Assembly (NCBI GenBank): GCA_024278695.1
Contig: JAJRSR010000029.1
Span: 1 to 54,324, forward strand
Length of the DNA stretch: 54,324 nt
Origin: Planctomycetota bacterium
Lineage (GTDB): Bacteria > Planctomycetota > Phycisphaerae > UBA1845
Direction: 5' to 3'
Shown here piece after piece: positions 1,566-53,612 of the stretch (position 1 is its first letter; each line of letters opens with the position of its first letter). The notes under the pieces were generated by a model. It ran no database searches and was not told the origin of the DNA. It saw nothing but the letters and a program-made list of their open reading frames with translations. A program made the translations under genes and the position numbers.

Positions 1566-4271
1566 TTGGCTGAGAAGATGCGCGTTCATGTTCTAGCGAA
1601 GGAACTGAACGTTCCCAGCAAGACGATCATCGAGAAGTGCAAGGCCGAAGGTGTAGACGTGGTCAAGAACCACATGTCTACCCTGAGTGCCGGTTTGCAC
1701 GCGACGATCCTGGAGTGGTTTAGCGACGGTAGTCACAACACGACGATCGAAACGGCTAAGCGCATCGATATTGAAAAGGTGCGTGTCACGAGTACGCCGA
1801 AGGAGGCTGCCCCGCCGGAAGACGTTGGTGGCGTTGCCGTGACGGCAACCGCCGAAGCGCCGGTCGCGCCTGTTCCGGATGTTGTTCCTGTTGGTGACGC
1901 TGTAGAGGTTGCTGACGCGCCGGTGGATCTACCCGTTGAACAGCCCACGGATGCGCCTGCTGAACCAACGGAGGTTGTCGGGGAACCTGCCGCACCGTCA
2001 AAGCCTGATGCGGGCGATGCGGTTCCGGGTGACCCTGCAGTGGTGGTTGGTGACGTAGCGCCGGTCGCGCCGGAAGCACCGGTAGAAGAACCTGCGGCAC
2101 CGCCCAAGCCGGTGATTCCGGCCGGTCCTCAAAACGTGCCCCAAGCTGCGAAGCTTCAGGGGCCGCGCGTCGTGCGCTATGAAGCCCCGGATTACGATAC
2201 GTTTACGCCGCGCCGCAGCAGCCCGACTCCTGGTGGTAGTACCGGTATGGGTGGTTCCGGCGGTCCGATGCCGGCTTCTCCTCCGGGTGCCGGTGCGGGT
2301 GATGCCGCGAAGAAGCGTGGTCGTGCAGGCGGCGCGCGGCGGAGCGGCGGCAAGGCTACGGCCGGTGAGAAGCTGGCCGAGTGGCGCGATCGCGATCTTG
2401 CGGAGCGGCGTCAGCGTCTTGCTGGTGCAACGGGGCGTCGCATTCACCGTCGGCGTTCGACACGAGGCGGTGGCGGTGGTCCTTCGGCAGATGTTGGGCC
2501 AAAGACCGAAGCGACGGTTCATGAACCTGTCCGTCTCAAGGAGTTTTGTTCTGAGACGGGGGTGAACTTTATTCAGTTGTTTAAGGTTCTCCAGAGCGAG
2601 CACGATATTGTGGCCAACATCAATATGGCTATCCCCACTGAGACTGCCCAACTGCTCGCGTTGAACTTTGGTATTGAACTCACGGTGGTTCCGGCGCGGA
2701 CCAAGCTGGACGAACTCAAGGATGAATGTGAGGCGCGTGAGCGCAAGCACCTCAAGCCCCGTCCGCCGGTGGTGGCGATGCTTGGTCATGTGGATCATGG
2801 CAAGACAAGTTTGCTTGATGCGATTCGCAGTGCGCACGTGGCCGCCGGCGAAGATGGCGGTATCACGCAGCACATCAGTTCGTACCACATTGAAACCGCG
2901 CACGGTTCGGTGACGTTTATCGACACACCGGGTCATGAGGCATTTACGGCTATGCGCGCTCGCGGTGCCCAGATTACGGACGTTGTTGTGTTGGTGGTCG
3001 CTGCGGATGACGGTCTGATGCCGCAGACGATTGAGGCGATCCGCCACGCGCAGGCTGCTGAGGTGCCGATCGTGGTCGCGCTGAATAAAATTGACTTGGG
3101 CGATCAGAACGTCGTCAAGATTTATGGTCAGCTTGCGGAGCACCAGCTCACGCCGAGTGGCGACTGGGGCGGCGATACCGACGTGATTCAGACCTCGGCG
3201 ACGACGAACATCGGCGTGACGGAGTTGGTCGAGCATTTGGCCGACCTGAGTGGGCTTTTGGAATTGAAGGCTGACGCGACGTTGCCGGCCGTGGGTACGG
3301 TGATCGAGGCGGAGACGAAGCCGGGCGTGGGTTCTGTGGTGCGTCTGCTGGTTCAAGAGGGGACGCTCAAGGAAGGCAACTTCATCGTGTGTGGTGGTGC
3401 GTTTGGTAAGGTGCGTGCGATCCTGGACGATCGCGGCAACCGAATCAAGTCGGCTGGTCCGTCGATGCCGGTAGAAGTGTGGGGGCTGGATGATGTTCCG
3501 ATGTCTGGCGACAAGCTCTACGCGGTTTCCGCGCAGCAGATAGCCAAAGAGATCGCTACTGAAACCAAACAGAAGCGTACCGAATCGGCGCGGCTACAAT
3601 CGCGCAAGGTGAAATCACTCGAGGAGATGTTCAAACGCGTCGATACCGGCGTCGTGCCCGAGTTGAACGTCATTATCAAGGCCGACGTCGATGGCTCGCT
3701 CGTGGCGCTCAAGCATTCGCTCATGGAGATTCCGTCGGAAGAGGTCAATCTGACGATCCGGCATGCGGCCGTCGGTCCGGTGAACGATAGCGATGTTTTG
3801 CTTGCGGCGACCAGTAATGGAATTGTTCTCGCCTTTCGCGTCGAGGTGCCGGTTGGCACGCGGCGTTTGGCCGAGAATCAGGGCGTGGATGTTCGTAACT
3901 ACCGCGTGATTTACGAGTGTTGTGATGACGTTCGTAAGGCGCTTTCCGGTCTGTTGACGCCGGACAAACATGTGGAGTCACGGGCGACGATCGACGTGCG
4001 GCAGGTCTTTAGGATTACCAAGGCGGGCATGGTGGCTGGTTCGTACGTGACTGACGGTGTGGTGAATCGAAATCATTTTGTGAAGATTCTGCGCGATGGT
4101 GCTGTGGTTCGTGAGGGCTGCCGGTTTGCGTCGCTCAAGCACTTCAAGGATGACGTCAAAGAGGTGCGTGCGGGTCTTGAGTGTGGCCTCCGGTTGGAGG
4201 GTTACGACGACATTCATGTCGGCGACACGCTCGAAACTTATGAGATTATTGAGGTCGCTCGTTCGCTCTAA
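1566..4271 (+). CDS. infB: Translation initiation factor IF-2
   Basis: 901-aa ORF starting at TTG 1566, with an alternative ATG at 1578. The N-terminal IF2 domain ([24 protein letters not shown]) is followed by a Pro/Ala-rich linker. GTPase motifs are [20 protein letters not shown] and NKID, followed by the conserved C-terminal domains. Confidence 0.97.
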
Positions 4272-15992: not shown

Positions 15993-16439
15993 TTACCGGT
16001 TGATGAAGCGTTTCATCGCGTCGAGTGTGGCCGGGCTCAGGTGGTGCTCGATGCCTTCGGCATCTGTTTCCGCGTGTTTCTTGGGGACGCCGAGTGCGCG
16101 AAGAAAATCAAGAACGAGCTGGTGGCGCTTGCGAACTTTGTCGGCCAGGCGCTTGCCGGCCGGTGTGAGAAAAATGGACCGGTAGCGCTCTGACGTCACG
16201 AGCCCGTCGCGTTTGAGCCGCGTGATCGAGTTGGTGACGGTGACGTGCGTGACGCCGAGATGCTGGGCGATGTCCACGGCCCGCGCCTCGCCGTTGTCGC
16301 GGATGAGATCGTCGATCAGCTCGACATAGTCCTCGGCCAACTCGTTGGCGTGGTCGTCACGCGTGCGTTGGAACCGTTGCGCCGTGGGGGTGGGTTTCGG
16401 CTTGGTCCCGGTGGCCCGGCTGGTTGTCGATTTTGCCAT
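15993..16439 (-). CDS. mntR: DtxR/MntR-family metal-dependent transcriptional repressor
   Basis: 148-aa ORF. The wHTH is EDYVELIDDLIRDNGEARAVDIAQHLGVTHVTVTNSITRLKRDGLV. The dimerisation and metal-binding region is LTPAGKRLADKVRKRHQLVLDFL...AETDAEGIEHHLS. It is divergent from a metal ABC uptake operon. Confidence 0.88.
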   Translation of the reverse strand: MAKSTTSRATGTKPKPTPTAQRFQRTRDDHANELAEDYVELIDDLIRDNGEARAVDIAQHLGVTHVTVTNSITRLKRDGLVTSERYRSIFLTPAGKRLADKVRKRHQLVLDFLRALGVPKKHAETDAEGIEHHLSPATLDAMKRFINR

Positions 16440-16540
16440 ATACGGTCCACTCTCGCTTACGCTGCCCCAGCGTCAAACGCTCGCTAGGGGCTTTCCGGGG
16501 TCATTTTGTCGCAAATCGTCCATGAGGTCAATCGGCGGGC

Positions 16541-16569
16541 TTGACGTTAGAGTGTAGCATATGCTAAAT
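16541..16569 (+). promoter_or_regulatory. Candidate promoter with an overlapping palindromic operator for the metal-uptake operon
   Basis: TTGACG (16541-16546) and TAAATT/CTAAAT (about 16564-16570) flank a perfect 12-bp palindrome, TAGCATATGCTA (16555-16566). They lie in an unusually AT-rich patch of the mntR/ABC divergent intergenic region. Confidence 0.4.
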
Positions 16570-16693
16570 TGTGTAATTAGCAGTTGATTCTGGGCCGTGG
16601 GATGGCCGATGGATATCCCTACGGGCGGGTGTGGGCGGGTGCGGGCGGTCGTACCCGTTCGTTGGTGACGCTATGTTTCTGTAGGAGTATGCC

Positions 16694-17728: not shown

Positions 17729-18547
17729 ATGCCGCGTCCTTTATTAAGAACATCCGTGCCACCATCGGGCAGCGATCATGACGCGGCCTGTCCCGTGTCG
17801 ATCCACGATATGACCGTGGCCTACCACCGCAAGCCGGTGCTGTGGGATATCGACTACGCCGCGCCGCAGGGGTCGCTCGTGGGGATCGTTGGTCCCAACG
17901 GTGCAGGCAAGAGCACGCTCATCAAGGCGTGTTTGGACCTTGTGCCGCGGGCTTCGGGTAGCGTTCGTTTTTACGGCAAGCCGTACAAGCGGGTTCGGCG
18001 GCAGGTGGGTTATGTGCCGCAGCGCGAGAGTGTGGATTGGGACTTCCCGGCCAGTGCGTTGGATGTCGTGACAATGGGGCGGTATGGTCGTCTTCCGTGG
18101 TGCCTGCCGCCGGGTCGGAAAGACCGCGAGTTCGCGCGCACTTGTCTCGATCGCGTCGGTATGATCGACTACGCCGGTCGTCAGATCAGTAAGCTATCCG
18201 GCGGTCAGCAGCAGCGGGTGTTTCTCGCGAGGGCACTCGCCCAGGATGCGGACGTCTATTTTATGGATGAGCCGTTCGCCGGTGTCGATGCGACGACGGA
18301 GGCGGCCATTGTGGTGTTGCTGCGCGATCTAAAAGCGCAGGGCAAGACGGTGATCGTTGTTCATCATGACTTGCAGACGGTGCCGGCGTATTTCGATCAT
18401 GTCTTGCTGTTGAACATGCGCGTGGTGGCCGCTGGTCCCACGAAAGAGGTGTTCACGCCCGACGCCTTGCAGAAAACCTATGGTGGTCGCCTCACGCTCC
18501 TCGACAAGGCCGCAGACGCCGTAGCCCAGGGGCGCAGCCGTCCATGA
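17729..18547 (+). CDS. Metal ABC transporter ATP-binding protein
   Basis: 272-aa ORF with Walker A GPNGAGKST, signature LSGGQQQR and Walker B VYFMDEPFAGVD. Its stop overlaps the next start (ATGA). Confidence 0.92.
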   Translation: MPRPLLRTSVPPSGSDHDAACPVSIHDMTVAYHRKPVLWDIDYAAPQGSLVGIVGPNGAGKSTLIKACLDLVPRASGSVRFYGKPYKRVRRQVGYVPQRESVDWDFPASALDVVTMGRYGRLPWCLPPGRKDREFARTCLDRVGMIDYAGRQISKLSGGQQQRVFLARALAQDADVYFMDEPFAGVDATTEAAIVVLLRDLKAQGKTVIVVHHDLQTVPAYFDHVLLLNMRVVAAGPTKEVFTPDALQKTYGGRLTLLDKAADAVAQGRSRP

Positions 18548-20010
18548 TCGCGATATGGCAACAACGCGTGCGAGCATCCCGATGCCAGAGCACGGTACTG
18601 GCCCTCTTTTGGCTCAGCGCGCCGGTTTTTGCCAGTACGATCACTACGCAGGAGACCCCGGCCGCACGGGTAAATGTTTCACGCGAAGGCGCTGATCGAG
18701 TGCCGCCGTCTACTGCGGAAAAACTTTGGCATGCCCTGTCGCTGCGAGATTACAATACGAGAGTCGTCGTGCTTGGTGTGACGTGTCTGGGGATGGCCGC
18801 GGGCGTCATCGGCTCGTTCGCCTACCTGCGCAAGCGGGCCATGTTGGGTGACGCGCTGAGCCACGCAACGCTCCCCGGCATCGCATTCGTGTTTATCTTA
18901 ACCGGTGATAAAAACCTCACGTGGCTGCTTCTCGGAGCCACGGTGACCGGCGTGCTCGGTGTTTTTGCGGTGCTCATGCTGCGCCGTGTGCCGCGCATTC
19001 GCGAGGACGCGGCCATCGGAATTGTGCTGAGCGTTTTTTTTGGTGCGGGCATGGTGCTCTTTAGCATTGTGCAGGAGATGAACACGGGGAATCAGGCCGG
19101 CTTGCAGAGTTTCATTTACGGCAAGGCGGCGTCGATGGTGCGCCGCGACGCGATGCTGCTAGCCGCCGTTGGCGGTGCCGTCATCCTCGGTGCGGTGCTG
19201 TTCTACAAAGAGTTTCGTCTCGTTTGTTTCGACCAAGACTTTGCGTCGGTACAGGGTTGGCCTGTGCTGCTGATTGATCTGGTGATGATGGGGCTCGTTG
19301 TTGCGACGACGGTTATCGGGTTGCAGGCCGTCGGGTTGATCTTGGTCGTTGCGCTGCTGATTATACCGGCCGCCGCCGCGCGGTTTTGGACGGACAAACT
19401 CACGACGATGATCGTGCTGTCCGGTGTGTTTGGTGCGATCAGCGGTTGGATCGGCGCGACGTGCAGCGCCGTGGCCAGCCGCATGCCGGCCGGGGCGATC
19501 ATCGTCATCTGCACGGGGGTGTTGTTTCTGTTCAGCATGATGTTTTCTCCGCACCGCGGTGTCTTGGCCGGGCTGTTGCGCCGATGGACGCTGCGGCGGC
19601 GCGTGGCGTTTCAGCACTTGCTACGCGCGCTGGCCGAGTTCGAGGAGGATCGCGGGGAGGGCTGTGCGGTAACGACCATTGAGCTATCGCGCGTCAGAAG
19701 CTGGACCCGGGCGGTACTGATTCCACTGCTCGCGCGGGCGGGTCGTGCGGGGTTGATCGCACGCGGTGCGGAGCGTCGGTTCAAGCTGACGGAACAGGGG
19801 CGCATCGAGGCCCAGCGCATCTTGCGGAATCACCGGTTGTGGGAACTCTACCTGATTCGATACGCCGACATTGCGCCGTCGCATGTGGATCGAGATGCGG
19901 ACGAGATCGAGCACGTACTACCCGACGCGGTTGTGCGGGAGCTTGAGTATGCCCTGGCGGCGGCGTCTGCGATTCCGTCATCGCCGCACCCGACAGGCGG
20001 TGTGGCATGA
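18544..20010 (+). CDS. Metal ABC transporter permease (ABC-3 family) fused to a C-terminal DtxR-like wHTH/dimerisation domain
   Basis: 488-aa ORF. The polytopic ABC-3 core contains GDALSHATLPGIA. The C-terminal part, aa 350-475 (nt 19591-19968), reads LTEQGRIEAQRILRNHRLWELYLIRYADIAPSHVDRDADEIEHVLPDAVVRELE. This matches the DtxR-family pattern seen in the adjacent MntR. Confidence 0.9.
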   Translation: MIAIWQQRVRASRCQSTVLALFWLSAPVFASTITTQETPAARVNVSREGADRVPPSTAEKLWHALSLRDYNTRVVVLGVTCLGMAAGVIGSFAYLRKRAMLGDALSHATLPGIAFVFILTGDKNLTWLLLGATVTGVLGVFAVLMLRRVPRIREDAAIGIVLSVFFGAGMVLFSIVQEMNTGNQAGLQSFIYGKAASMVRRDAMLLAAVGGAVILGAVLFYKEFRLVCFDQDFASVQGWPVLLIDLVMMGLVVATTVIGLQAVGLILVVALLIIPAAAARFWTDKLTTMIVLSGVFGAISGWIGATCSAVASRMPAGAIIVICTGVLFLFSMMFSPHRGVLAGLLRRWTLRRRVAFQHLLRALAEFEEDRGEGCAVTTIELSRVRSWTRAVLIPLLARAGRAGLIARGAERRFKLTEQGRIEAQRILRNHRLWELYLIRYADIAPSHVDRDADEIEHVLPDAVVRELEYALAAASAIPSSPHPTGGVA

Positions 20011-21350
20011 TGTCCTGGGAATGGTCCATCGACGGTTGGATTGTGCTGGCCGGCGTGCTCAGCGCGTGCTCGTGTGCGTTGTTGGGTAACTTCCTCGTGC
20101 TTCGCCGGATGAGTCTCATGGGCGATGCCATTTCTCACGCGGTGCTTCCGGGTTTGGCGGCGGCGTTCTTGATTTCCTCCAGCCGCAGTGCGGTTCCGAT
20201 GTTCATCGGTGCGGTGGTCGTGGGGTTGCTGACGGCGTTGCTCACCCAGCTCATTACGCGGTTCGGTAAGGTCGAACAAGGTGCGGCGATGGGCGTTGTG
20301 TTTAGTATGCTTTTTGCGGTCGGGCTGGTGATGATTCGTCAGGCGGCCGACGCGGTCGATCTTGATCCGGGTTGTGTGCTGTACGGTGCGGTGGAGCAGA
20401 TACCGCTCGACGCGCTGGGCGGGGAAATCCCTTCGGCCATCATCAACCTGGCCATCGTTTTCGTTGCGAACGTGCTGTTTGTGGTTGTCTTTTTCAAGGA
20501 ACTGAAAATATCCGCATTTGATCCCGACCTAGCGACGACGCTCGGTTTTAATGCCAACCTGATGCACTATCTTCTTATGGTGATGGTGGCCGTCACGACT
20601 GTAGCGAACTTTGAAGCCGTCGGGTCCATACTTGTGATCGCGATGTTGATCGTGCCGGCCGTGACGGCGTACCTGTTGGCCGACCGGCTTGGCGTGATGA
20701 TTCTGCTGAGCGTGGTGGCGGCTGCGGTGGCTGCGGTCGTGGGGCATGTGTTGGCCGCGTTTGGACCGGGCTGGGTCGGGTCAGATATTTCGCTAAAGAC
20801 GGCTGCGATGATGGCGGTGGTTTCAGGTGCGATACTGGTGATCGTGATCTTCATCTCGCCGCAGTACGGTATGTTCTCGCGTGCGTACCACCGGTCTTTG
20901 CTCTCGGCGCAGATCGTTCGGCAGGACATACTCGGCTTGCTGTTTCGGTGGCAGGAACTCAAGCCTTTGGACGGCGCGCCCATGCACCGGAGTGAAGTGC
21001 TGGCGGCCGTGGGGAATACGTTTCTTGCGCGTCACGGGCTGCGAACCTTGGAACGGCGGCGAGCGATATCGGAGACGCCGTTTGGCTCCGGCCGTTTCGG
21101 GATCGAACTGACAGATGCGGGTCAGCGCGAGGCGCAGACGCTGGTCGGCGCACACCGCCTGTGGGAGTCGTACCTGGCAAAGCATTTCCAGCTAGCGGAC
21201 GATCACCTGCACGCGCCAGCCGAGCGGATGGAACATTATATCTCGGGTGAAATGCGAGACGCGCTGCGCGAGGATCTCACGGCCCCGACCCACGACCCAC
21301 ACGGGCGACCGATCCCGGAGATGCCCGACGAGCCCCAACGCCCATCATAA
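20007..21350 (+). CDS. Second metal ABC transporter permease (ABC-3 family), also fused to a C-terminal DtxR-like domain
   Basis: 447-aa ORF whose start overlaps the previous stop (ATGA). The core contains GDAISHAVLPGLA. The C-terminal part, aa 300-425 (nt 20904-21281), reads LTDAGQREAQTLVGAHRLWESYLAKHFQLADDHLHAPAERMEHYISGEMRDALRE. Confidence 0.9.
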   Translation: MMSWEWSIDGWIVLAGVLSACSCALLGNFLVLRRMSLMGDAISHAVLPGLAAAFLISSSRSAVPMFIGAVVVGLLTALLTQLITRFGKVEQGAAMGVVFSMLFAVGLVMIRQAADAVDLDPGCVLYGAVEQIPLDALGGEIPSAIINLAIVFVANVLFVVVFFKELKISAFDPDLATTLGFNANLMHYLLMVMVAVTTVANFEAVGSILVIAMLIVPAVTAYLLADRLGVMILLSVVAAAVAAVVGHVLAAFGPGWVGSDISLKTAAMMAVVSGAILVIVIFISPQYGMFSRAYHRSLLSAQIVRQDILGLLFRWQELKPLDGAPMHRSEVLAAVGNTFLARHGLRTLERRRAISETPFGSGRFGIELTDAGQREAQTLVGAHRLWESYLAKHFQLADDHLHAPAERMEHYISGEMRDALREDLTAPTHDPHGRPIPEMPDEPQRPS

Positions 21351-29383: not shown

Positions 29384-30379
29384 CTAAGGGTACGACCTGG
29401 GCGGCACAGAGGGGATCGTGGTTGCGCGCGCCGCGCGAATGTATAGGGTGCGCCGGGGTGTTCCGGAATCATCGACCTCGGCCGTCATCAGCCGATCCAA
29501 CGTCTCGTAGGACGCTTCCCCGGAGAGGTGCCCGAAGATCGTATACTGCCCGTCCCAATCCTTCAGTCGGGTGTAACCAATGAAGAATTGGCTGCTGCCG
29601 GAGTCCGGGTCATCACCAAGCAGTGCCATAGCGACGGAGCCTTTATCAAGGTGCCGTTCGTTATGCTCAAAGGCGATTCGCTTGCCGTCAGGCCTTACGC
29701 CCGTGCCATCACCGCGCGGGCAACCACCCTGGAGCATGAAGCCCGGTTCCAAGCGGTGGAACGTCTGACCCGTGTAGAAACCCGATTCCACCAAGTCAAG
29801 GAAGTTAGCCACATGGGCCGGAGCGTCCTCGTAAAAGAGGTCGATCGTGAGCGTGCCATCGTCCGTGATGAGTTGGACGCGTTTTTGCGGTGCCACGATA
29901 ATGCGGACCGGCTCACTCACGGCACCGCCACCGTAGGGTCGCCACGTGATACGGTATTCCCCGGCCGTTCGAAGCGCGGGGAAATACTCTCGCAGATCAA
30001 TCATGGTGCCCACGGTGCTTCGGGGAGCGAGCAGCAGAATGGGGGCCTCTTTCGGCTTGCGGTAGCCCACGGGCCGCTCCCAACTCCGGCCCGATCCGGT
30101 GGTTACCTCGACCCCGGAGGTCTCACCGCCGCTGAAAACATGCGACAGCGGCAATCCGATCTCCGGGTCGGGGATCGACGGTTCCGCACCCGGTACGGTC
30201 AGGGTGACCGATTCATCCAGGGCATTCTCGATCGTCATGGTGGCCCAGACTGGCTGACCGACGGGTACATGGTACATCATCGGCTTGATTTTAGCGCGAA
30301 GGCCTACGATCGGATCAGCGGCGGAATCGCTATAAGCTACTGCTAAGAATAGAGTTGAGAGTAGAATACGGTACCGCAT
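29384..30379 (-). CDS. Secreted cyclophilin-type peptidyl-prolyl cis-trans isomerase with an N-terminal beta domain
   Basis: The frame is open to 30448. ATG 30379 gives the signal peptide MRYRILLSTLFLAVAYS. Cyclophilin motifs are FHRLEPGFMLQGGCPRGDGTG, GSVAMA, SGSSQFFI and YTIFGHL. Confidence 0.88.
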   Translation of the reverse strand: MRYRILLSTLFLAVAYSDSAADPIVGLRAKIKPMMYHVPVGQPVWATMTIENALDESVTLTVPGAEPSIPDPEIGLPLSHVFSGGETSGVEVTTGSGRSWERPVGYRKPKEAPILLLAPRSTVGTMIDLREYFPALRTAGEYRITWRPYGGGAVSEPVRIIVAPQKRVQLITDDGTLTIDLFYEDAPAHVANFLDLVESGFYTGQTFHRLEPGFMLQGGCPRGDGTGVRPDGKRIAFEHNERHLDKGSVAMALLGDDPDSGSSQFFIGYTRLKDWDGQYTIFGHLSGEASYETLDRLMTAEVDDSGTPRRTLYIRAARATTIPSVPPRSYP

Positions 30380-30607
30380 CAGCCGATCAACATCCCATAA
30401 AAACCTTGCAACTCCCGGGCCACCAGAAAGCGGCACAGCCAGCGACAACCCACCGCCACCGCGTCGAACGACCGTTGCCGCTCTTGGAGAGTCGCCTGTT
30501 CAGTCATTCATACCGCACGCTTGGTACAAAGTTGCGGCCTCAGACTTCGTTAGACTCATCGGTCACAGACGGGGCGATCCTGGACGCCGAATCGACGTTC
30601 GGACGCG

Positions 30608-30636
30608 CTGACACCGGCTCGACGATGGTGTAGAGT
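30608..30636 (+). promoter_or_regulatory. Candidate selD promoter, implying a leaderless mRNA
   Basis: CTGACA (30608-30613), a 17-nt spacer and TAGAGT (30631-30636). ATG 30645 lies 8 nt downstream. Confidence 0.35.
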
Positions 30637-30644
30637 CCGATTCT

Positions 30645-31691
30645 ATGACACCTTCACGAAAGAGTCGACTCACGAACTACGCCAGTTGTGCTGGCTGAGC
30701 GGGCAAGCTCCCTATGGGAGCCCTCGCGCAGGTGCTGCGCAGCCTTCCCAGCTTCGACGATCCCAACCTCCTCGTCGGCACGGATCACTTTGACGATGCC
30801 GGCGTGTACCGCCTGACGGATACGCTGGCCATCGTCACCACGGTGGATTTTTTCCCGCCCCTGGTGGATGATCCGTACGTTTTTGGCCAGATCGCGGCCG
30901 CCAACAGCCTGTCGGACGTTTATGCGATGGGGGGGCGTGCGGTCACGGTTTTGAACATCGTGGGCTTTCCCGACAAGGATCTGCCGGTAGAGATTCTCGG
31001 TGATATCCTTCGCGGCGGCGCGGAGCGGGTTTTGGCGGCTGGTGCCGTCGTCGCGGGTGGGCATAGTGTTCGTGATGCGGAGATCAAATTCGGTCTCAGC
31101 GTCACCGGCGTGGTCGATCCATCGCGGATGTTTACCAACGGCGGGGCTAAGGCGGGTGATGTACTCGTGCTGAGCAAGCCGATCGGGAGCGGTGTGCTGA
31201 CGTCTGCTGCGAAGGCTGGAGACATTGATGAGGGCGGGTTGGCCGAGGCGGTTGCAGTGATGATCGACCTGAACGCCGCCGCGTCGGAAGCAGCCATCGA
31301 AGTAGGGGCTCGCGGCGTGACGGACATCACCGGATTCGGTCTCATCGGGCACGCGTTTGAGTTGGCCGAAGCGAGTGGTGTGACTATCGAGTTGGAGGCG
31401 GGTAAGGTGCCGCTGCTGGACCAGACGATCTCACTGGCCAAACGGAAGATGCTGACGCGTGCGCACAAGACAAACCTGGCGCATCTGGGTGATCGTGTGG
31501 TGGCCAGCGGTGTGGACGAGACGACGTTGGCCGTGTTGGCTGACGCGCAGACGTCCGGTGGCTTGCTGATCGCCGTGGGTGAGGATCGCGCGGATGAACT
31601 CGTGGCCGGGCTCAAGAAACGTGGTACAAAGTCGGCCGCGGTCGTGGGTCGGGCCGTGCCCAAGGGCGCGAGCGTGTTGACCGTACAGTAG
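30645..31691 (+). CDS. selD: Selenide, water dikinase (selenophosphate synthetase) with in-frame UGA = selenocysteine at codon 18
   Basis: The ORF track starts this gene at 30714. The same frame upstream reads ATG(30645) MTPSRKSRLTNYASCAG-TGA(30696-30698)-AGKLPMGALAQVL. This aligns to E. coli SelD [25 protein letters not shown], with the TGA at catalytic Cys17. The rest of the protein is classical SelD (DDAGVY, VDFFPPLVDDPYVFGQIAAANSLSDVYAMGG, GGHS, DITGFGL, DAQTSGGLL). Confidence 0.9.
30699..30740 (+). promoter_or_regulatory. Candidate bacterial SECIS region downstream of the selD UGA
   Basis: Two short hairpins follow the UGA: GCTCCC-TAT-GGGAGC (30707-30721) and GCGCAG-GTG-CTGCGC (30726-30740). 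I cannot tell by eye which, if either, is the SelB-binding element. Confidence 0.3.
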
Positions 31692-52280: not shown

Positions 52281-53612
52281 TTACTGCTTTTCGATTCTCT
52301 CTCGGTGGCCCATGTAGGGGCGGAGTGCTTCGGGGATGGTGATGGTGCCGTCGGCGTTTTGGTTGAGCTCCAGGAGCGGAATCAGCACGCGCGGTGAGGC
52401 GATGACGGTGTTGTTGAGCGTATGGCAGTGTCGTACCTTCTTCGCGCCGTCGCGGTAGCGCAGCTTCAGCCGCCTTGCCTGGAACTCATAAAACCTGGAG
52501 GCCGAGTGCGTCTCACCCCAGCCGTTGCGCGAGGGCATCCACGCCTCGATGTCGAACTTCTGCACCTGCCCCATGCCGAGATCACCCGTGCAGACCTCGA
52601 CCACGCGGTAGGGCAGCCCGATGCGCTGCATCATGTCTTCCGAGTTTTGCAGAATCTCATGATGAAACTTGATGCTCTCGGCCTCATCATTTTTGCAGAC
52701 GATCACCTGCTCGACCTTCTCGAACAAGTGAATGCGGTACAAGCCGTGCGTGTCCTTACCCGCAGCACCGGCCTCTCGGCGAAAGCAGAGGCTGGTCGCG
52801 CAGGTTTTCTTGGGCAGGTCGGCTTAGCTGAGGATTTCGTCGGAGTGGTAAGCCGTCAGCGGCACCTCGGCCGTACCGACCAGCGATTTCTCGTCCCGTT
52901 CGCAGAGGTACGCCTGATCGCGGCCGCCGGGGAAGTAGCCGGTGCCGTACATCACCTCTTCACGCACCAGCACCGGCACCGTCATCGGCACGAAGCCGCG
53001 CTCGACCATCATGTCCTGCGCCAGCCGCAGCACGGCCTGATGCAACAGGGCACCGTCGCCGCGTAGGATGTAGTTGCGCGAGCCGGACAGCTTCACGCCG
53101 CGTTCAATGTCGATAATCCCAAGCGCCTCACCGAGTGCCACGTGGTCCTTCGGCTCGAAGTCAAACTTCCGCACCGTGCCGACTTGGCGCAGCTCCACGT
53201 TTTCGCTGTCGTCCTTGCCGCGCGGGGCCGAGTCCATTGGCGGCTGCGGGATGGTTAGCATAAGCCGCTCGAACTCTTCGAGGACCGGTCCCTCCTCCGC
53301 TTCGAGCTCTTTGAGTTTTGGTTTGATTTCCGATAGCCGCTCCTGAATCTTGCCGGCCTCGGCTTTGATGTCGTCGGCGGTCTTGCCGGACTCGATCGCC
53401 TTGACGTAGCCGGCCGATTTCGGATTACGCAGCAGCCCGACCAGTTGTCCGCTTTCTTTGACCTCGCCGCGCAGGGCTTCGAGCTCAAGCTGCAGGGCCC
53501 GGCGGCGCTGATCCACCTCCAGCAGACGCGGCACGTCGCATTTGATGTGTTTATCGACTGCGCCATGCGTCACAAGAGACGCGTTCTCACGAATAAACTT
53601 GATATCGAGCAT
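52281..53612 (-). pseudogene. serS: Seryl-tRNA synthetase interrupted by one in-frame TAA (nonsense mutation, sequencing error or recoding)
   Basis: Track ORFs 52824..53612 and 52281..52742 are in the same frame. The full reading is ...LVGTAEVPLTAYHSDEILS-TAA(52826-52824)-ADLPKKTCATSLCFRREAGAAGKDTHGLYRIHLFEKVEQV... The N-terminal coiled coil and class II motifs 2 and 3 are all intact. Confidence 0.9.

Follow-up and report, generated by a model that had tools for sequence, protein, structure and literature searches.

A planctomycete selD gene predicted to encode a selenocysteine-containing selenophosphate synthetase, with a candidate SECIS hairpin inside its reading frame

Selenophosphate synthetase (SelD) that itself contains selenocysteine (Sec) is a textbook case, and the hairpin of E. 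coli fdhF is the prototype of the bacterial SECIS elements that are read by SelB. In the fdhF element, the apical loop lies about 18 nt from the UGA and the structure carries a bulged U. Among bacterial selenoproteins, SelD and FdhA have the widest distribution (PMC1794560), and both the Sec form of SelD and bacterial SECIS (bSECIS) elements located within open reading frames have been described (PMC4561486, PMC13188914). One of these studies mentions Planctomycetes a single time, as a phylum represented by too few genomes (PMC1794560), and we found no discussion of a Sec-form SelD from this group in PMC1794560, PMC4561486 or PMC13188914.

We analyzed a stretch of DNA of 54,324 nucleotides (hereafter the window) from an uncultured, Phycisphaerae-like member of the Planctomycetota. 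We place at about 0.9 the probability that the selD gene in this window encodes a Sec-containing selenophosphate synthetase and reads UGA 30696-30698 as Sec. The predicted protein belongs to the same enzyme family (TIGR00476) as the Sec-containing SelDs of Pasteurellales (Haemophilus influenzae) and Aquifex aeolicus. It shares with them the UxxK motif, the location of Sec at the E. coli Cys17 position and of a Lys three residues on, the presence of a stem-loop within the open reading frame after the UGA (PMC4561486, PMC13188914), and the truncation that ORF callers impose on the gene. Unlike those proteins, it comes from an uncultured planctomycete and has the loop CAG-U-AGK, which includes the Cys of a CxxU motif and has no equivalent of Cys19. 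Moreover, its putative SECIS loop lies at 33 nt, close to the upper limit of the allowed 16-37 nt, and another small hairpin comes before it.

E. coli SelD (PDB 3u0o) is collinear with the window protein over residues 6-340 and has the same RLT.Y...G-[C/U]-..K loop. In contrast, the E. coli enzyme carries Cys17 (TGC/TGT) and needs no SECIS, and its downstream peptide KVLETIL encodes no hairpin. With the fdhF element, the candidate SECIS of the window (hairpin 2 below) shares a stem-loop within the ORF right after the UGA and an apical loop that starts with G and then U, as in the consensus of PMC13188914. It differs in that its 6-bp helix is perfect and closes a 3-nt loop at 33 nt, and its binding by SelB is a prediction.

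The selD ORF that was called on the plus strand (30714-31691) corresponds to a protein of 325 aa. An ATG at 30645-30647, located 69 bases 5′ of the called start, opens the same frame upstream and gives MTPSRKSRLTNYASCAG, then TGA 30696-30698, then AGKLPMGALAQVL, from which the frame runs uninterrupted into the called ORF. An earlier note on this DNA had described such an in-frame ATG and UGA, and all of the sequence facts that it gave hold. Features of the locus are collected in Table 1.

Table 1. Features at the 5′ end of selD and their positions in the window
Feature	Positions	Strand	Remarks
-35-like hexamer CTGACA	30608..30613	+	From promoter scan; TGAC core invariant in 6 aligned loci and most of 11
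-10-like hexamer TAGAGT	30631..30636	+	8 nt before ATG; TAnAnT conserved in the clade
Proposed full-length selD CDS	30645..31691	+	348 codons plus stop TAG; predicted Sec at codon 18
Proposed true selD start codon, ATG	30645..30647	+	Invariant in 11/11 aligned clade members, including the Cys form
17 codons missed by the ORF call	30645..30695	+	RLTNYASCAG is part of the glycine-rich catalytic loop
Predicted Sec-coding UGA, codon 18	30696..30698	+	Equivalent to E. coli SelD Cys17 by alignment to 3u0o
Lys21 codon, AAG	30705..30707	+	Counterpart of E. coli Lys20; last residue of the UxxK motif
Hairpin 1, GCUCCC-UAU-GGGAGC	30707..30721	+	-9.1 kcal/mol; starts 9 nt after UGA
Called start ATG (Met24), probably miscalled	30714..30716	+	Overlaps the loop of hairpin 1 and its closing pair
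Hairpin 2, GCGCAG-GUG-CUGCGC, putative SECIS core	30726..30740	+	-8.0 kcal/mol; starts 28 nt after UGA

For protein searches the TGA was entered as Cys, which gives a read-through protein of 348 residues. This protein scores 366.2 bits against TIGR00476, the NCBIfam SelD equivalog (cut-off 125), with residues 8-315 aligned to positions 1-310 of the 311 in the profile, and 320.9 bits against NF002098 (cut-off 299). Because the SelD profile is matched from its position 1, and the match begins at residue 8 counted from ATG 30645, the stretch 5′ of the TGA belongs to the family match. The best match among solved structures is E. coli SelD (3u0o, E = 1e-62, residues 6-340). In the phmmer alignment to this structure, codon 18 (TGA) falls on Cys17 and Lys21 falls on Lys20, and alignment columns 10-11 (AA) in the Lys21 region are invariant in 69 Sec forms. 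The UxxK motif that results is the one listed for experimentally verified selenoprotein SelD (PMC13188914). Thus the assignment of the UGA to catalytic Cys17 in the earlier note is confirmed against both the E. coli structure and the SelD family alignment, as is its statement that the ORF call at 30714 trims the catalytic N-terminal loop, since the residues removed include the equivalents of Cys17 and Lys20. These matches support the identification of the gene as selD, with a predicted activity that depends on selenide and ATP.

A further cysteine lies three residues before the Sec position (30687-30698, Cys15-Sec18; CAG-U, or CxxU) and falls within the missed codons. Most SelDs of the Sec form from Planctomycetota and Chloroflexota have it, and it is missing in deltaproteobacterial forms (RAAG-U) and in E. 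coli (GAG-C-G-C). One possible role for Cys15 is that of a resolving cysteine in a selenenylsulfide.

A scan of species-representative genomes yielded 80 loci (L001-L080), 79 of which include the TGA region; the closest are metagenome-assembled genomes (MAGs) of Phycisphaerae/Planctomycetota. At the Sec column, 66 of the 79 have TGA and the remaining 13 have TGC or TGT. The Sec forms are spread over Planctomycetota, Chloroflexota, Desulfobacterota and other phyla. Exact protein look-up contributed six closer relatives, at 76-86% identity plus the Cys form. In the resulting clade alignment of 11 sequences, TGA is kept in all ten Sec forms, which come from assemblies whose proteins are 60-86% identical, and is replaced by TGC in the Cys form. 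A divergent arrangement of a cyclophilin gene and selD is common to the relatives.

The codons upstream of the TGA change in a manner expected of coding sequence. Over the ten codons that precede it, comparison with an 85%-identical relative (L081) reveals seven synonymous and no nonsynonymous changes, and comparison with eight other relatives reveals 4-7 synonymous and 1-4 nonsynonymous changes. This predominance of synonymous change is the signature of a translated sequence under purifying selection. Nevertheless, nearly all of the best 120 matches in the protein collection have calls of about 325 aa and share the truncated length seen in the window. The single longer call among the best matches is the nearest Cys form (P0035, on locus L082; 67% identity). 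It reads RLTDYASCAGCAGKL and otherwise has the same loop, with YASCAG-C-AGKL where the window has YASCAG-TGA-AGKL. The call for this protein, at 360 aa, is probably over-extended at its N-terminus, which reads through the conserved promoter region (L082 4269-4310); the ATG aligned with window position 30645 lies 12 codons 3′ of the called start.

A promoter scan detects CTGACA-17-TAGAGT at 30608-30636, and in the clade the TAnAnT element sits 6-8 nt 5′ of the invariant ATG. No Shine-Dalgarno sequence is found before ATG 30645. Because the promoter-like sequence ends 8 nt before the ATG and no Shine-Dalgarno sequence is present, the selD mRNA is probably leaderless or nearly so. The conserved position of the promoter-like sequence also supports ATG 30645 as the start. 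Together with the codon conservation described above, it favors a model in which translation of selD begins at ATG 30645 rather than at the called Met24. On the minus strand, the same scan picks out TCGACT-17-TAGAAT at 30640-30668, which lies within the first selD codons and faces the divergent cyclophilin gene (29384-30448).

Two hairpins follow the UGA within the coding sequence, the second of them formed by codons for the peptide AQVLR. When folded as single sequences, hairpin 1 has a z-score of -3.2, with 5 of 200 shuffles as good, and hairpin 2 has a z-score of -2.25, with 4 of 200 shuffles as good. For the 81-nt region as a whole, shuffled GC-rich sequence is just as stable (z = -0.58). 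The hairpins by themselves are therefore only mildly unusual, and the case rests on comparison with relatives.

According to published rules, a bSECIS element has an apical loop of 3-9 nt with a G in the first two loop positions, an upper stem of 4-16 bp, a UGA-to-loop distance of 16-37 nt, and a minimum free energy (MFE) of -7.5 kcal/mol or lower (PMC13188914). Hairpin 2 agrees with all of these rules (3-nt loop GUG, 6 bp, 33 nt spacing and -8.0 kcal/mol). Hairpin 1 departs from two of them, in that its loop, UAU, lacks a G and is only 14 nt from the UGA; for the same reasons, and because only 43% of its cells are paired across the 69 Sec forms, we rejected it as a SECIS. Members of the Phycisphaerae-like clade keep this stem, in which a loop base varies freely and a U-A pair has changed to U-G. 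Given its loop sequence and position, we conjecture that it is at most an auxiliary stem specific to this clade. The earlier note had offered both hairpins as SECIS candidates. Both indeed exist, but only the second agrees with the bSECIS rules and is conserved across phyla.

From the UGA onward the 69 Sec-form sequences align without gaps and in codon register. A 9-bp version of hairpin 2 is paired in 69% of cells across this alignment, and eight of its nine pairs show changes on both sides. In Cys forms, only 41% of cells are paired in the same columns. Covariation for hairpins 1 and 2 together is 0.201, compared with a mean of 0.154 for shuffled alignments, and none of 500 shuffles reaches this value; every register obtained by sliding the hairpins scores below the one tested. 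Some of the compensation is visible within codons. A change of Gln CAG to CAA is accompanied by a change of Leu CUG to UUG, both of them synonymous. Likewise, the third base of an Ala codon covaries with the codon that it pairs with, giving GCG with CGC (Arg), GCA with UGC (Cys), and GCU with AGC or AGU (Ser). Judged from the aligned codons, these two kinds of compensation cannot be explained by selection at the level of the protein.

The position of the loop differs among groups. In 27 of the 67 Sec forms that were scored, the loop of the best hairpin starts exactly 33 nt after the UGA, and all 27 have the sequence GUN. A second group of Sec forms has its loop one base earlier, with the sequence GGU. 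The loop is 6 nt earlier in some Dehalococcoidia, about 27 nt after the UGA, and deltaproteobacterial Sec forms carry it at 16-20 nt. Across phyla, then, SelD genes display at least three SECIS registers, and the encoded peptide changes along with them (AQVLR, DLVQVL and GPGDL).

A covariance model built from 66 relatives, with the window left out, has a single match in the window, at 30696-30758, which scores 56.1 bits (E about 1e-18) against 10 bits for the runner-up. This sole match covers hairpin 2 and bears out the proposal that a SECIS lies just downstream of the UGA. A sequence-only model of the same alignment scores 43.9 bits, 12 below the structured model, although part of this gap may reflect alignment mode rather than structure. 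Rfam 15 gives no match over the window at gathering thresholds, nor on 30600-30850 at E values up to 10. The hairpin is thus outside the curated Rfam families, which does not mean that it is no SECIS. Overall, the comparative data support hairpin 2 as a SECIS element, to which SelB would be expected to bind.

Within the 54-kb window there is no tRNA gene, and no selA, selB or tRNA-Sec. A 901-aa GTPase (1566-4271) was considered as SelB and rejected, as it is IF-2 and adjoins NusA. Two related loci, one from Phycisphaerales (L005) and a second one (L006), hold clusters of selD(TGA), selB, selA and tRNA-Sec, whose SelB (361-363 bits) and SelA (512-523 bits) both exceed their cut-offs by a wide margin. 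On two other loci (L070 and L076), tRNA-Sec and sel genes lie beside a TGA-form selD. In the window itself, TGA is the ordinary stop codon of 7 of the 31 genes. From this use of TGA and from the sel genes beside selD in these four relatives, we strongly infer that selA, selB and selC are located elsewhere in the source genome. On a locus from a Pirellulales MAG (L066, 8-1994), a Cys-form SelD adjoins selA and selB; thus planctomycetes with a SelD that is itself no selenoprotein can also have the Sec trait.

A scan of the window for other genes interrupted by TGA found none and returned mainly off-frame noise. The only plausible candidate with a TGA in the same frame, on the minus strand at 15996-16670, was rejected because the sequence 5′ of its TGA is non-coding and the remainder is a DtxR/MntR-type regulator with its own Met. 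Two adjacent genes on the plus strand (18544-20010 and 20007-21350) encode ABC-3 permeases of the Mn/Zn type, both with a C-terminal Fe_dep_repr_C domain (DtxR metal-binding and dimerisation), and the same fusion is present on a related locus (L083). Apart from these fusions, a DtxR/MntR-type repressor occupies 15993-16439 on the minus strand. The seryl-tRNA synthetase (SerRS) gene (52281-53612, minus strand) has an in-frame TAA at 52824-52826 (…HSDEILS-stop-ADLPKK…) in a frame that is otherwise continuous and full-length. It was rejected as a second recoding site, since its stop is TAA rather than TGA and is therefore unrelated to Sec. An assembly error, strain variation or decay of an essential gene into a pseudogene may account for this TAA.

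Three other explanations for the TGA in selD were weighed against Sec insertion. The existing ORF call could be right, in which case the gene would encode a truncated SelD-like protein started at Met24, or would be a pseudogene cut by a nonsense mutation. We regard this as highly improbable. Gene callers do pick the 325-aa ORF in nearly all close relatives, but what these relatives conserve is the upstream frame: the 17 codons before the TGA change almost only synonymously and ATG 30645 is invariant in the clade, while Met24, although the six nearest relatives keep it, is found in no more than 4 of the 69 Sec forms. The relatives therefore speak against a downstream start. A protein begun at Met24 would also lose the equivalents of Cys17 and Lys20, and the promoter-like elements lie 5′ of ATG 30645. 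As for a pseudogene, the in-frame stop in SerRS means that assembly errors or pseudogenes are possible in principle in this assembly, yet 66 of 79 genomes, drawn from many phyla, share the TGA. The same distribution bears on the suggestion that a TGC or TGT was turned into TGA by faulty sequencing or assembly in what is really a Cys-form SelD. Only one base separates these codons, and the contig does contain one other suspicious in-frame stop; however, the TGA is present in ten independent assemblies of the clade as well as in the 66 species-level genomes, and an error is the least probable explanation of all, with next to no chance of being correct.

Alternatively, the UGA might be decoded as an amino acid other than Sec, through near-cognate read-through as Cys or Trp or through a lineage-specific reassignment of the codon. 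Cys is functional at this site in many SelDs, including those of 13 of the 79 relatives, and the Sec machinery is not found within the 54-kb window. Global reassignment was rejected because a codon that ends 7 of 31 ordinary genes is not globally recoded, and no other gene in the window needs read-through. Moreover, a covarying hairpin with a GU loop is present at a SECIS-compatible distance in the TGA forms and not in the Cys forms, and relatives with a like arrangement have selB, selA and tRNA-Sec adjoining selD. We consider non-Sec decoding very unlikely.

With Sec insertion as the preferred reading, expression of the gene would proceed as follows. Translation would start at ATG 30645 of an mRNA that is transcribed from the conserved promoter-like sequence and is probably leaderless or nearly so. 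SelB, carrying Sec-tRNA(Sec) and GTP, would bind hairpin 2 with its apical loop GUG and deliver selenocysteine to the UGA, where release factor 2 would otherwise act. Sec18 and Lys21, in the glycine-rich N-terminal loop, would then occupy the catalytic positions of E. coli Cys17 and Lys20. The resulting SelD is predicted to make selenophosphate from selenide and ATP for the synthesis of Sec, and possibly for selenouridine.

A more speculative idea, which we view as a long shot, is that in the planctomycete clade the 5′ end of selD is a selenium-sensing switch that goes beyond a plain SECIS. Its elements would be the leaderless mRNA, the UGA at codon 18, the two-hairpin element with AUG24 in the loop of the first hairpin, and a SelB-type loop at the unusually large distance of 33 nt from the UGA. 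When selenium is present, the cell would make full-length Sec-SelD. Without selenium, ribosomes that stop at the UGA could re-initiate at AUG24 and yield a truncated, catalytically dead protein. If such a switch were to operate, synthesis of SelD would be autocatalytic and gated by selenium.

The gene displays every testable defining feature of a Sec-SelD, a correct assignment that is unsurprising to a specialist and leaves the current understanding of Sec decoding unchanged. The main value of the finding is a corrected annotation, as the called 325-aa SelD lacks the catalytic loop, and the same truncation affects essentially every close homologue among the best 120 matches in a large protein collection. 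The locus also shows cleanly how a conserved peptide, here AQVLR, can be dictated by an RNA hairpin, and in it a third base that is synonymous for Ala covaries with the amino acid that the pairing codon specifies. For the organism, the corrected selD is a mark of a selenocysteine user, and UGA-interrupted genes elsewhere in its genome are therefore worth a deliberate search. With this gene, Phycisphaerae-like Planctomycetota would join the lineages that have a Sec-form SelD.
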